A stretch of DNA of 63,595 bases from the sequence record MK373795.1. The stretch is one strand, 5' to 3'. This stretch comes from Escherichia phage vB_EcoS_HdSG1. Both the position numbers and the translations under genes were made by a program. The notes beneath the pieces were generated by a model that was not told the DNA's origin, did no database searches, and worked only from the letters and a program-made list of their open reading frames with translations. Below, one piece after another: positions 57,119 to 59,937 of this stretch (positions are counted from its first letter, which is position 1; every line of letters starts with the position of its first letter).

Positions 57119-57355
57119 TTAAAACGTAGCGGGATTAATTTCAAATAACGAACGTGATGGTACAACATCAAAGTTGACATCTACCAGCTTAAAAGAATTC
57201 GTGTAAACACACCATGTACCGACTTTTTCATTAAAGACGGGCTTGTCATTATTAAATGCGTACACGCAACCATCAGAATCTGTTGCAATATATCTTGTGT
57301 CTTTTGGTACTTCTACATCTGAACCATAATAGTGAACGGTAATTAAATCTGACAT
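57119..57355 (-). CDS. hypothetical protein
   Basis: 78-aa ORF. Confidence 0.5.
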   Translation of the reverse strand: MSDLITVHYYGSDVEVPKDTRYIATDSDGCVYAFNNDKPVFNEKVGTWCVYTNSFKLVDVNFDVVPSRSLFEINPATF

Positions 57356-57428
57356 GTTATTCTCCTACGATCCATTAGGACACACATAGTATATACTGAT
57401 GGATCGCAGGGGGCTAACCCCCTGCAAA

Positions 57429-57827
57429 TTATGGTACTAAGACCCAACGACACACGATAGGTTTACATGTTACTTGTTCTTTAGAGATAGTAATTCTATC
57501 CTTGAACATTATTCTCGGATAAAAATATTTCATGTAATTATCCGAATCCGTTTTACATTGTGCATTCAATATGCGAGAGCTGACAATAAACTTTAAATCC
57601 GCCCAATCCTCCATAGAATCAGAAAAAGATAGGATACGCCCATTTCCACGAACTTTAGCAGTTGACTCAGCTGGTAGCCTGTGGTTAATATCACACGGCA
57701 AGTCTAAAGCAGGTATCTTTCCTTTGATTAATTTATCTGTATTAAAAGAGCCAATTTCTAAAGTATGGATATTTTGACCTTTAATTGGTTCTTCAAACTT
57801 AACATCGACAACGAGTCTGACTAACAT
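57429..57827 (-). CDS. hypothetical protein
   Basis: 132-aa ORF. Confidence 0.5.
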   Translation of the reverse strand: MLVRLVVDVKFEEPIKGQNIHTLEIGSFNTDKLIKGKIPALDLPCDINHRLPAESTAKVRGNGRILSFSDSMEDWADLKFIVSSRILNAQCKTDSDNYMKYFYPRIMFKDRITISKEQVTCKPIVCRWVLVP

Positions 57828-57842
57828 ATATTACCTTCACAA

Positions 57843-58118
57843 TCACCATAAAATTTCTACACTTTCAGTATCCAGCTGACTTAATGGTTGCTTATATGAG
57901 ATTGTATATCCAAATGATACCAGTTGTTCAGTGACCTTTCTCATTACAGGACGTGCATTAGGACTACCGATTTCACTATATGGCTTTTTAAATAATTTAA
58001 TATGATCCATGCCATCTAGAGACGCTTTAGTAATCCATTTATCCAAATCATCAAGATATGCACCGGTATCCAAGTTTTCACTATTTGTACGGGCTTCTTG
58101 TGCTGTAATCATAATCAT
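57843..58118 (-). CDS. hypothetical protein
   Basis: 91-aa ORF. Confidence 0.5.
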   Translation of the reverse strand: MIMITAQEARTNSENLDTGAYLDDLDKWITKASLDGMDHIKLFKKPYSEIGSPNARPVMRKVTEQLVSFGYTISYKQPLSQLDTESVEILW

Positions 58119-58339
58119 TGCTCCATAGCTTGTTTCATCAATGCGTCATAGATACATTTCGCACTAGACGCGTTCCACAGTTGTTCGTCTGTCTGAACTT
58201 CCTGGTTCCATTGCTTATCAAATAAACCTTCTTCATACGCATCTTTAATACGCTTGCACAAAGTAAGGATGTCAGTTTGAAGAATATCAATTTCTTCTTG
58301 AGTTAACGCAGTTTGGAGTTCTTTACTCATCTTTGCCAC
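58115..58339 (-). CDS. hypothetical protein
   Basis: 74-aa ORF. Confidence 0.5.
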   Translation of the reverse strand: MAKMSKELQTALTQEEIDILQTDILTLCKRIKDAYEEGLFDKQWNQEVQTDEQLWNASSAKCIYDALMKQAMEQ

Positions 58340-58709
58340 CTTCTTTATTCAGTTGACCACATGCTGGAGTCCATTGTCCGTTCAATGTGCGCTTAAGATC
58401 GTCCTTGCGCATACGTTCGAACCATTCAGTGTGGTCATGAGGATTGTCGCTTACTTTATAGTCAATATTAACACACGTTTCTTTGAAATCCATACCTTCC
58501 AGGTCCACGTTATAACAGATATCGATTTCAATACCTGGCTCAGTTAATACCCAAAAACCATCGCCATCAATACATTCACACCACTGAGGTTCATTCTCGA
58601 ATGCGGTTAAAGTACCGTCCTCGTCGACAGCAAGGTATTTCGCCCACACTGGAACAAACAACACTTCACCGAAGTATCGCACAGCCTTCTGAGTAAGATT
58701 AATTTGCAT
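58323..58709 (-). CDS. hypothetical protein
   Basis: ATG 58709 with strong RBS GGGAGGTG. Confidence 0.55.
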   Translation of the reverse strand: MQINLTQKAVRYFGEVLFVPVWAKYLAVDEDGTLTAFENEPQWCECIDGDGFWVLTEPGIEIDICYNVDLEGMDFKETCVNIDYKVSDNPHDHTEWFERMRKDDLKRTLNGQWTPACGQLNKEGGKDE

Positions 58710-59052
58710 GTTCACCTCCCGATACCAGTTCCAAAGTCTCACGAAGCAGACGCTCGAGCTTCGATTTATTTTTGATAAGCTGATATTGCCGATCCACCAC
58801 AAGCACCTTCTGACGGTTACGCATAAGGTATTCGAACGCACTTTGAAAATCTTCGACTTTACCTTCATAACCTAGAGCCTTGGCGACGTGCGATACACGA
58901 TGGAACAGAAAGTCCGCAAAGTCCATAACTTCCATCGCATTCACAATAACGTCAATTAAATCCGAATTTGCAATCGGGTCTAGCTGTTTAGCTTGTTCGA
59001 GAAGTCGCACCTTTGCTTTATATAAAGGTGAATTGCTTACTGTTTGCATCAC
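58699..59052 (-). CDS. hypothetical protein
   Basis: 117-aa ORF. Confidence 0.5.
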   Translation of the reverse strand: MMQTVSNSPLYKAKVRLLEQAKQLDPIANSDLIDVIVNAMEVMDFADFLFHRVSHVAKALGYEGKVEDFQSAFEYLMRNRQKVLVVDRQYQLIKNKSKLERLLRETLELVSGGEHAN

Positions 59053-59318
59053 TTCCTCCAGATTTTACGCGATTCTTCAATACGGATGTTATACCGTATA
59101 AGTTGTTGCATAACTTTATGCAGGTCATCGAGATGCTTCCTTAAACGAAGACGTTTCTTGATAGCCCACAGGTTCTTCATATCCGTTCGTCGGAGATCCT
59201 CCCTTAAATACAATGAAAAGTCAGTCTGCCGATCTAAGATAAATTGGATACGCATCAAAGTATCTGACTTACGATAATCAGGATACCACTTAGGAAGCAG
59301 ATCTTGTTCGCCAACCAT
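59049..59318 (-). CDS. hypothetical protein
   Basis: ATG 59318 with RBS TTGGAG, abutting upstream stop. Confidence 0.5.
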   Translation of the reverse strand: MVGEQDLLPKWYPDYRKSDTLMRIQFILDRQTDFSLYLREDLRRTDMKNLWAIKKRLRLRKHLDDLHKVMQQLIRYNIRIEESRKIWRK

Positions 59319-59319
59319 C

Positions 59320-59937
59320 TTACGCTCCAAACTGATCAATGTATTCAATGAGCTCTTGCAATTCCTGCTGTAACTGCACATTACCACTATTATTCGTCTG
59401 AAGTCTAACGAGGCTCTCCTTGATATGTGCAATGTGGTTAGTGCTCATCCGACGCTTCTGTACATCACACCAGCGAACAACACCATCCTCAATATATGCA
59501 CGACGCGCTTTACCACGCGGGTATCGCAGCGGCCTTATTTCACACTTATCGTCCACCCACTTAAAGCCCAGGATCATAACACCGTTGCCTTCCGTATCAG
59601 GACACACGTCAAAGCAACTCGTGAACCCTTTACTGCGCATGTACTCGTCGAGCGGGATTACCTTATCGGGCGACAACCATTGATACCCGAAGTAGATGTC
59701 AACAGTGAACATCATCCCCAACATCGGAGCCGCCCAGCACATATACGTCCGCCCGTCATCCAACTTCTTGACCGCATTCGGCCGCAACACGAGGCCAGCC
59801 TCCTTCCACGCTTTGACCACATTAATTGTGTTGTCCTGCTCTTGGAATATTGCGTCTGCTTGCATATATGTAGGCGCGTCCCAGCCAAACATTTCCTTTA
59901 CATGAGCATTAGTGATTTCAACCCTTTGATTGTGCAT
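59320..59937 (-). CDS. hypothetical protein, first gene of the leftward early block
   Basis: 205-aa ORF downstream of the AT-rich promoter region. Confidence 0.6.
   Translation of the reverse strand: MHNQRVEITNAHVKEMFGWDAPTYMQADAIFQEQDNTINVVKAWKEAGLVLRPNAVKKLDDGRTYMCWAAPMLGMMFTVDIYFGYQWLSPDKVIPLDEYMRSKGFTSCFDVCPDTEGNGVMILGFKWVDDKCEIRPLRYPRGKARRAYIEDGVVRWCDVQKRRMSTNHIAHIKESLVRLQTNNSGNVQLQQELQELIEYIDQFGA

Follow-up and report, generated by a model that had tools for sequence, protein, structure and literature searches.

We examined a window of 63,595 nucleotides, the whole of sequence record MK373795.1 (Escherichia phage vB_EcoS_HdSG1), which represents a complete genome of an E. coli phage of the 9g/JenK1/HdK1-like Nonagvirus group. 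Positions 57119-59937 contained eight consecutive ORFs, all on the minus strand and labelled here A to H in order of rising coordinate. An earlier, sequence-only reading had described eight small, tightly packed genes for products of 74 to 205 aa, and this description was confirmed: every ORF was present, the sizes were as described, and neighboring ORFs overlapped or abutted. The gene directly downstream of the block encodes an 849-aa primase/helicase (54560..57109, minus strand).

ORF H (59320..59937, 205 aa), the member closest to a promoter-like cluster, was the most divergent of the eight and was restricted to Nonagvirus. The protein is predicted to begin with helices, followed by a small beta module or a pair of them, and to end in two helices that are invariant. 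ORF H of HdSG1, together with its leader, represents a rarer allele, common to ESCO3 and HdK1. ORF G (59049..59318, 89 aa, phrog_16944) was likewise genus-restricted and encodes a basic protein (pI 10.2, 25% K+R); a 127-aa reading from a TTG start runs into H. In one metagenomic relative (L015/L016), an unrelated 142-aa gene takes the place of ORF G. ORF F (58699..59052, phrog_17615) encodes 117 aa, or 116 aa from the ATG at 59049, and was also confined to the genus, with a dN/dS of 0.28. ORF E (58323..58709) encodes an acidic protein of 128 aa from the preferred start, which has a Shine-Dalgarno (SD) sequence; a 181-aa reading runs into F and has none. Residues ~7-83 of E form an all-beta domain that is also found in A and is widespread in phages, and the C-terminal tail is acidic, disordered, modeled at low confidence and dispensable.

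ORF D (58115..58339, phrog_18528), acidic and genus-restricted, encodes 74 aa from a GTG start or 71 aa from the ATG at 58330. ORF C (57843..58118, phrog_5321; 91 aa, or 89 aa from the ATG at 58112) was present across the Queuovirinae, including Seuratvirus, with 33% identity to Seurat gp79, and was found by tblastn in 45 records. ORF B (57429..57827, 132 aa, phrog_17122) is mildly basic and genus-restricted, and fell into two old allele classes of ~95% and ~73% identity. ORF A (57119..57355, 78 aa, phrog_19703 plus phrog_1972) consists of the A/E beta domain alone and lies 9 nt upstream of the primase gene.

Each of the eight preferred starts carried an SD sequence. H and G are separated by 1 nt, G and F overlap by 1-4 nt, F and E by 11 nt and E and D by 8-17 nt; D and C overlap by 4 nt or are separated by 2 nt, depending on start choice. 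Gaps of 15 nt, 73 nt and 9 nt follow at C/B, B/A and A/primase, respectively. H through C are translationally coupled. The interval from ORF H to the primase/helicase start contained no predicted terminator, and the eight ORFs form the 5' part of a long minus-strand operon that runs into the primase/helicase and replication genes.

Putative control region upstream of ORF H

A promoter-like cluster on the minus strand (60100..60241) lies upstream of ORF H. It contains three exact CTTTATAAAT boxes, at 60232-60241, 60136-60145 and 60107-60116; no further exact copy occurs in the window, and all three are invariant in eight phages. When up to one mismatch was allowed, the number of matches was reached by no shuffle. 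A consensus scan also identified a sigma-70-like TTTTCA-16-TACAAT element in the cluster; -35 regions were weak. Consensus and conservation suggest that the CTTTATAAAT cluster is a putative promoter. Between the boxes and ORF H is a leader with repeated TTGCA(A) motifs (60016..60076, minus strand), possibly an operator or other regulatory site. This leader and the N-terminus of H formed the most variable stretch.

Further upstream, a strong intrinsic terminator with an 11-bp stem and a T-run (60927..60953, minus strand), also marked as such in the HdK1 record, closes the upstream right-end operon and separates that operon from the eight-ORF block. It was the only terminator-like site in 56900-63595, with none inside the block. 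The ~1 kb from there to ORF H is conserved and non-coding, and includes the promoter-like boxes. An Rfam scan of 56000-63595 returned no match.

In phage 9g, a divergent promoter region is located at the genome terminus (PMC4276943). The eight genes had been thought to be the first transcribed from the right end, which does not hold: seven other small ORFs (60977-63237), the terminator and the ~1 kb of non-coding DNA all lie upstream of them. The related description of the genes as promoter-proximal is correct in that they are the first after the conserved promoter-like cluster, but not with respect to the terminal promoters, from which the seven ORFs separate them. The block therefore does not comprise immediate-early genes, in the sense of those that directly follow the terminal early promoter. 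Since it precedes the primase and replication genes, early or middle expression is plausible.

Distribution and rates of evolution

All eight ORFs were present in 17 of 17 GenBank Nonagvirus records, and all were syntenic in the eight relatives examined. By tblastn, B, D, F, G and H were found in these 17 records only. Equivalents of JenK1 gp59-gp66 occurred in the same order and on the same strand, directly before primase/helicase (8 loci, 17 records). 9g (FH31_gp26-33), JenK1 (AVU35_gp59-66) and FritzHoffmann (bas20_0062-0069) carry the same eight genes with identical neighbors, each labeled 'hypothetical protein'. The genes are thus already known, since entries for them as hypothetical proteins exist in 17 Nonagvirus genomes. 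Amino acid identity between the HdSG1 block and its Nonagvirus relatives was 57-100%, with allelic differences only. JenP2, BRET and HdK1 each have one extra gene within the block, ORF C is truncated in 9g, and in FritzHoffmann E is shorter and D longer than in HdSG1. As to strain-variable accessory genes, the picture was mixed: all eight are present in 17 of 17 records, yet C is truncated, G replaced and extra genes inserted in some genomes. That no Nonagvirus genome lacks the eight genes is as compatible with core viral functions as with host interaction.

Median dN/dS values (Nei-Gojobori) ranged from ~0 to 0.35 for the eight ORFs, compared to 0.02 for primase, and B-H evolved ~10 times faster than primase at non-synonymous sites. 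Mosaic alleles were seen in B, C and H. Positive selection was ruled out, as every dN/dS was below 0.5. In the hypervariable N-terminus of H, dS was saturated, which points to old alleles and recombination. The SD sites, the overlapping or abutting frames, the presence in all 17 records and the purifying selection show that all eight are genuine genes, conserved within Nonagvirus.

ORF A differed from its neighbors. Nucleotide identity was 87-88% in B, while A, its leader and the beginning of the primase gene reached 98-99%, placing A in a 400-nt island of 98-99% identity. At the protein level A was 96-100% identical, with dN ~0, and A and its leader were conserved like primase. The spacer between B and A (57368..57425, minus strand) was itself conserved, with 96% column identity in eight phages, and contains two stem-loops, GCAGGGGG-TTAG-CCCCCTGC at 57425-57406 and CGATCCAT...ATGGATCG at 57406-57368; no T-run follows them. 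The B-A spacer forms a conserved border, with the fast-evolving B-H module on one side and the ultra-conserved A-primase segment on the other.

Domain and fold searches

All eight proteins matched PHROGs at full length (19703, 17122, 5321, 18528, 1972, 17615, 16944 and 18014; E-values 2e-28 to 2e-123), and PHROGs classes all eight as "unknown function". The sequence-only reading, which had assigned the genes no function, was correct on this point, as no function could be assigned. Its statement that they lack recognizable motifs was upheld for Pfam, NCBIfam, PADLOC and PDB sequences, but not in full, as A and E share a domain and each ORF belongs to a PHROG. Scans of the eight proteins against Pfam, NCBIfam and PADLOC gave only sub-threshold noise (TmcA_N, FGAR-AT linker, YkoF, PGC7), and no enzymatic or DNA-binding domain was found in the domain libraries. 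Searches of all PDB chains with B, C, E, F, G and H, and with A/E, H and C profiles (phmmer/hmmsearch), returned nothing below E = 0.07. These searches thus gave no significant similarity to anti-defence proteins of solved structure, from DNA mimics such as Ocr/ArdA and anti-CRISPRs to inhibitors of Gabija, Thoeris, CBASS and the like. The product name 'ATP-binding protein', given to a C homologue in the CSP1C record, is structure-like and looks unreliable.

The structure models, from among A, E and H, were of only moderate confidence (mean pLDDT 62 and 67). The search for inhibitor folds that had been proposed as a check was negative: the models showed no fold similarity to solved inhibitors. 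A possible SH3/Tudor-like barrel in H gave a weak generic signal; these matches came from a low-confidence model and were thus not used for a functional call. The remote homologues of H that proved true, P0023 and P0025, both lack a Pfam domain, and P0026, a 1796-aa Fn3/LRR protein, was rejected as a spurious repeat-summed match.

Both A and E matched the profiles of phrog_1972 and the related phrog_19703, 11307 and 26007, and share the motif Y-x-G-x4-V-P-x5-Y-[IL]-A-x-D-x-D-G-x4-[FY]-x3-P. The beta domain was the confident part of the predicted model of E. The A/E domain had structural neighbors in T4-like, jumbo and podovirus proteins, and no match among solved structures. E differs from the phrog_1972 family generally in its extra disordered acidic tail. 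The A/E family showed no relationship to the H family (hhalign). AcrIC9, a type I-C anti-CRISPR (PDB 8HJJ), is a small acidic phage protein with a ~50-residue local pattern match to the A/E profile; it was rejected as a relative, as the match was non-significant (E = 0.96) and the b1b2a1b3a2a3 fold was not matched.

The Nonagvirus copies of the A/E domain are conserved, whereas the domain is hypervariable in relatives that carry a Zn ribbon and come from enterobacterial phages, the 9NA-like phages among them. There, pairwise identity was ~39% in the domain, compared to 97% in the invariant N-terminal flank and 85% in the C-terminal flank, both under purifying selection. A hypervariable domain between conserved flanks fits a diversifying, target-binding module. 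The domain is widespread and has no characterized member, and a solved structure would therefore be worthwhile.

Possible functions and relation to known early gene clusters

In the literature on Nonagvirus, Queuovirinae, Bas19/Bas20 and 9g, we found no gene-level functional data on the eight ORFs. The explanation that best accounts for the results, to which we give an even chance, is that these are real Nonagvirus genes of a second transcription unit, with A belonging to replication and B-H to host conditioning or regulation. Host RNA polymerase would start at the internal promoter-like cluster upstream of H, so that the eight proteins would be made first from a second unit, delayed-early or middle, and would not be the first products of the terminal early promoter. 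With lengths of 71-205 aa and no enzymatic motif, the proteins would most probably work stoichiometrically, by binding or modulating macromolecules of the host or the phage. With its extreme conservation and a distance of 9 nt to the primase start, A is probably a functional part of the replication module. B-H are more likely host-conditioning or regulatory factors, with anti-defence one possibility among several.

A somewhat unlikely alternative is that the block serves the phage's own DNA metabolism or regulation, supplying primase/helicase loading, origin factors, an early-late switch or helpers of 7-deazaguanine (dG+) modification. Primase adjoins the block in the same operon, A is conserved like primase within the 400-nt island of 98-99% identity, G is strongly basic and conservation is genus-wide. 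The 9g authors also postulated additional regulators for the early-late switch (PMC4276943). However, no DNA-binding or enzymatic domain was detected, and G is replaceable. B, D, F, G and H are moreover missing from Seuratvirus, a sister genus with the same replication and deazaguanine core.

An anti-defence or host-takeover role had been proposed for these genes; position and size make them plausible candidates, but nothing in the analysis pointed to such activity. The stronger version, in which the block is an anti-defence island and several of B-H, or E, are stoichiometric inhibitors of E. coli immunity acting before replication, appears unlikely. It is consistent with small early genes ahead of the replication genes, with the quicker evolution and old mosaic alleles of B, C and H, with the gain, loss and replacement of genes inside the block, and with the arms-race-like pattern of the Zn-ribbon relatives of A/E, hypervariable between invariant termini. 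However, the PDB sequence searches and the fold searches gave no similarity to solved or catalogued inhibitors, and the match to AcrIC9 was non-significant with a different fold. Acidity like that of DNA mimics (roughly 25-30% D+E and pI < 4) was also absent: the maximum was 20% D+E with pI 4.37, in E, and the other proteins contained 12-19%. All eight genes are retained in 17 of 17 genomes, dN/dS was below 0.4 wherever dS was unsaturated, and in published screens Nonagviruses were still sensitive to type III restriction-modification, Zorya, Druantia, ARMADA and retron systems.

It is doubtful that the A/E domain itself binds and inhibits a host factor that varies, for instance a defence protein; if true, a new and very widespread phage family of counter-defence or host-takeover proteins would include E, and perhaps A. 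That the block contains spurious frames, in part or throughout, lying in DNA that is non-coding or regulatory, as the absence of known domains and the over-extended 181-aa and 127-aa mechanical ORFs might suggest, is highly improbable and already contradicted by the SD sequences at conserved starts, the frames kept in eight or more genomes with dN/dS well under 1, the full-length PHROG families and the confidently modeled beta domain of E.

Early clusters of small genes that carry host-takeover and anti-defence genes are known from virulent coliphages (see also PMC13250531). As it stands, the significance of the HdSG1 block is small and the finding an ordinary one. In practice, work on Bas19 and Bas20, the BASEL Nonagvirus phages, gains a clearer map, in which the block is a putative second transcription unit with a conserved control region and A is provisionally grouped with the primase module. 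Deletion and defence-panel screens could reasonably begin with B-H, which are genus-specific and evolve faster.

Examples of such early clusters are T7 genes 0.3-0.7 and the T5 pre-early genes. Similar to these, the HdSG1 genes are small and tightly packed, have no assigned function, and are flanked by a promoter region and by the replication genes. Unlike them, the HdSG1 ORFs have no homology to Ocr, T5 A1, A2, Dmp, Hdi or solved inhibitors. The HdSG1 block also differs in its location, away from the genome end that presumably enters first, and in being preceded by a separate early operon.

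Gene content and conservation of the block

The eight minus-strand ORFs that the sequence-only reading had placed at 57119-59937 were found there: H (59320-59937) lies furthest upstream, followed by G (59049-59318), F (58699-59052), E (58323-58709), D (58115-58339), C (57843-58118), B (57429-57827) and A (57119-57355), next to the primase/helicase gene (54560-57109, minus strand). Mechanical ORF calling over-extended two of them, as a 181-aa reading of E and a 127-aa TTG reading of G both overlap the upstream neighbour and have no Shine-Dalgarno sequence. The starts in the JenK1 annotation, which give E 128 aa from 58709 and G 89 aa from 59318, have good Shine-Dalgarno sequences. 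From H to C, each gene overlaps the next or is separated from it by no more than 2 nt, suggesting translational coupling; the remaining spacers are 15 nt (C/B), 73 nt (B/A) and 9 nt (A/primase).

The 3.1-kb region matched 17 phage records over its full length at 89-95% nucleotide identity. All 17 are Nonagvirus (Queuovirinae), including HdK1, ESCO3, JenK1, JenP1/2, 9g, BRET, SE1 and the BASEL phages ChristophMerian (Bas19) and FritzHoffmann (Bas20). The gene layout of the window, plus strand to ~34 kb and minus strand from ~63.2 kb to 34.2 kb, fits a complete Nonagvirus-type genome. Bas20 is a Nonagvirus by its GenBank record, unlike in a preprint that calls Bas20 and Bas21 Markadamsvirinae (T5-like) with two-step DNA injection (bioRxiv 10.64898/2026.07.11.737809); other papers place both among siphoviruses or Queuovirinae.

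In the eight relatives fetched, A-H were intact and in the same order, with C truncated in 9g. By the Nei-Gojobori method, A had a median dN/dS of ~0, B and E had 0.12-0.13, and C, D, F, G and H had 0.24-0.35, compared to 0.02 for the N-terminal part of primase. A-H are genuine genes, and the purifying constraint on them is relaxed. A 221-aa plus-strand ORF (59425-60090), antisense to H and reaching into the promoter-like region, is annotated in no relative and is most likely a chance frame. In the HdK1 record (MK373794), primase is broken into four CDSs (1044-3610) and the H and G orthologues are fused or frameshifted (5852-6744), probably as an artefact of sequencing or assembly and not a biological difference. 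Primase is also split in the SE1 and 9g records.

Pfam, NCBIfam and PADLOC scans of A-H gave no significant match, in agreement with the earlier report of no recognisable motifs, and each protein matched a PHROG of unknown function over its full length. A tblastn comparison with 50,697 phage records confined B, D, F, G and H to the same 17 Nonagvirus records, with one marginal extra match for D; C had further matches, at ~33% identity, in Seuratvirus and a small number of other phages. When the H profile was run in an exhaustive HMM search over 1.84 billion representatives, just two true remote homologues emerged (E = 1e-18 and 2.5e-12), and no Pfam domain was seen in either. A match of this profile to an Fn3-repeat protein was spurious.

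Transcriptional setting

A-H had been described as the first genes transcribed from the right end. This position is instead held by seven small minus-strand ORFs (60977-63237), all PHROGs of unknown function and including two paralogue pairs, phrog_3199 (60977-61225 and 61756-62001) and phrog_13865 (61255-61518 and 62815-63237). The 9g paper puts the divergent early and late promoters at the physical end of the genome, in non-translated DNA (PMC4276943). By position, this right-end operon is a better immediate-early candidate than A-H. Just past its last gene, which ends at 60977, is a strong minus-strand hairpin with a T-run (60953-60927), annotated also in HdK1 and the sole terminator-like site within 56900-63595.

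The terminator stands at the upstream end of a 1039-nt non-coding stretch between the two small-gene operons (59938-60976), which has no credible ORF and 85-93% identity among relatives. The first ~400 nt after the terminator contain 35-41% C and 10-18% G on the transcribed strand, a composition like that of a Rho-utilisation site; the remainder is AT-rich. In JenP1 a homing endonuclease gene is inserted in the corresponding region. The stretch may serve as a control region or as a Rho-dependent attenuator, or it may be an origin.

The AT-rich part carries three exact minus-strand copies of CTTTATAAAT (60232-60241, 60136-60145 and 60107-60116). They are the only exact copies in the window and are invariant in eight phages; with up to one mismatch allowed, all 100 shuffles gave fewer matches than were observed. 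A consensus scan found one sigma-70-like match, TTTTCA-16-TACAAT, overlapping the last box, and four TTGCA(A) repeats follow in the leader. Together these elements make an internal promoter/operator region upstream of H plausible. An Rfam search over 56000-63595 gave no match. The block is promoter-proximal in that it adjoins an internal promoter-like region, but not with respect to the terminal early promoter. A-H come after a terminator and then a promoter-like region that is conserved, and they run on into primase; they would open a second transcription unit, of delayed-early or middle timing.

Evolution of the block and the A/E domain

Nucleotide identity to seven relatives was 94-98% across primase, rose to 98.4-99.3% in a ~400-nt island (57000-57399) that takes in the start of primase together with A and the A leader, and dropped abruptly to 87-88% in B. 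It was lowest (73-82%) at the N-terminus of H and its leader. The island is conserved beyond the rest of the primase gene, synonymous sites included. Within the 73-nt B-A spacer, which is conserved at 96%, are two stem-loops without a T-run (57425-57406 and 57406-57368). This conservation suggests constraint at the nucleic-acid level across 57000-57428, for example an RNA fold with a regulatory role, a processing site or an origin. Island and spacer also indicate that A is evolutionarily part of the primase module, with B-H a faster, mosaic module.

B occurs in two allele classes (dS ~0.2 and ~0.85), C has a divergent allele in JenP2, and H residues 1-40 show dN 0.34 with saturated dS, followed by almost invariant residues 41-57. 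This pattern points to old alleles swapped by recombination, and positive selection was rejected. JenP2 and BRET have one additional gene between F and G, and HdK1 has a Seurat-gp78-like insert. In a metagenomic Nonagvirus (L015/L016, 6635-7063) G has been exchanged for a 142-aa protein that is unrelated to it and matches HNH_3 weakly, the other seven genes being kept.

A and E have a common N-terminal domain, Y-x-G-x4-V-P-x5-Y-[IL]-A-x-D-x-D-G-x4-[FY]-x3-P, seen also in Seuratvirus (two copies), Klebsiella siphoviruses of ~48-kb genome, 70-78 kb E. coli phages (including Bas87) and a Xanthomonas jumbo phage. Related ~110-aa Zn-ribbon proteins occur in 39 cluster representatives (P0029-P0074) from FSL SP-062-like (Nonanavirus) and other enterobacterial phages, encoded at ~4001-4336 in loci L014, L018, L019 and L020. 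Their N-terminal four-Cys Zn ribbon is invariant (97% pairwise identity, DNA changes synonymous), the A/E-homologous middle is hypervariable (mean identity 39%, minimum 18%) and the C-terminus is 85% conserved; gathering by shared 5-mers biases this set to conserved termini, and the constant-variable-constant pattern was confirmed in the DNA comparison. A hypervariable middle between invariant termini hints that the A/E domain family may be a diversifying target-binding module.

Possible functions

The products of A-H would act as small binders or modulators and not as enzymes. A composite role, with A linked to replication and B-H acting as host-conditioning or regulatory factors, has in our view about an even chance of being correct. 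That the genes work solely in DNA metabolism or regulation of the phage itself is a doubtful alternative. A specifically anti-defence role, for which the sequence-only reading had put A-H forward as candidates alongside host takeover, is improbable: no protein resembles any solved inhibitor, composition is not that of a DNA mimic (D+E at most 20%), the genes are present throughout the genus, and Nonagviruses are sensitive to type III restriction-modification, Zorya, Druantia, ARMADA and several retrons in published work. A literature search found no reported phenotype for any of A-H. Relatives already have the eight-gene block on record, and it is nothing unusual in a virulent phage: in every annotated relative, its orthologues are listed as 'hypothetical protein' directly 5' of primase/helicase.
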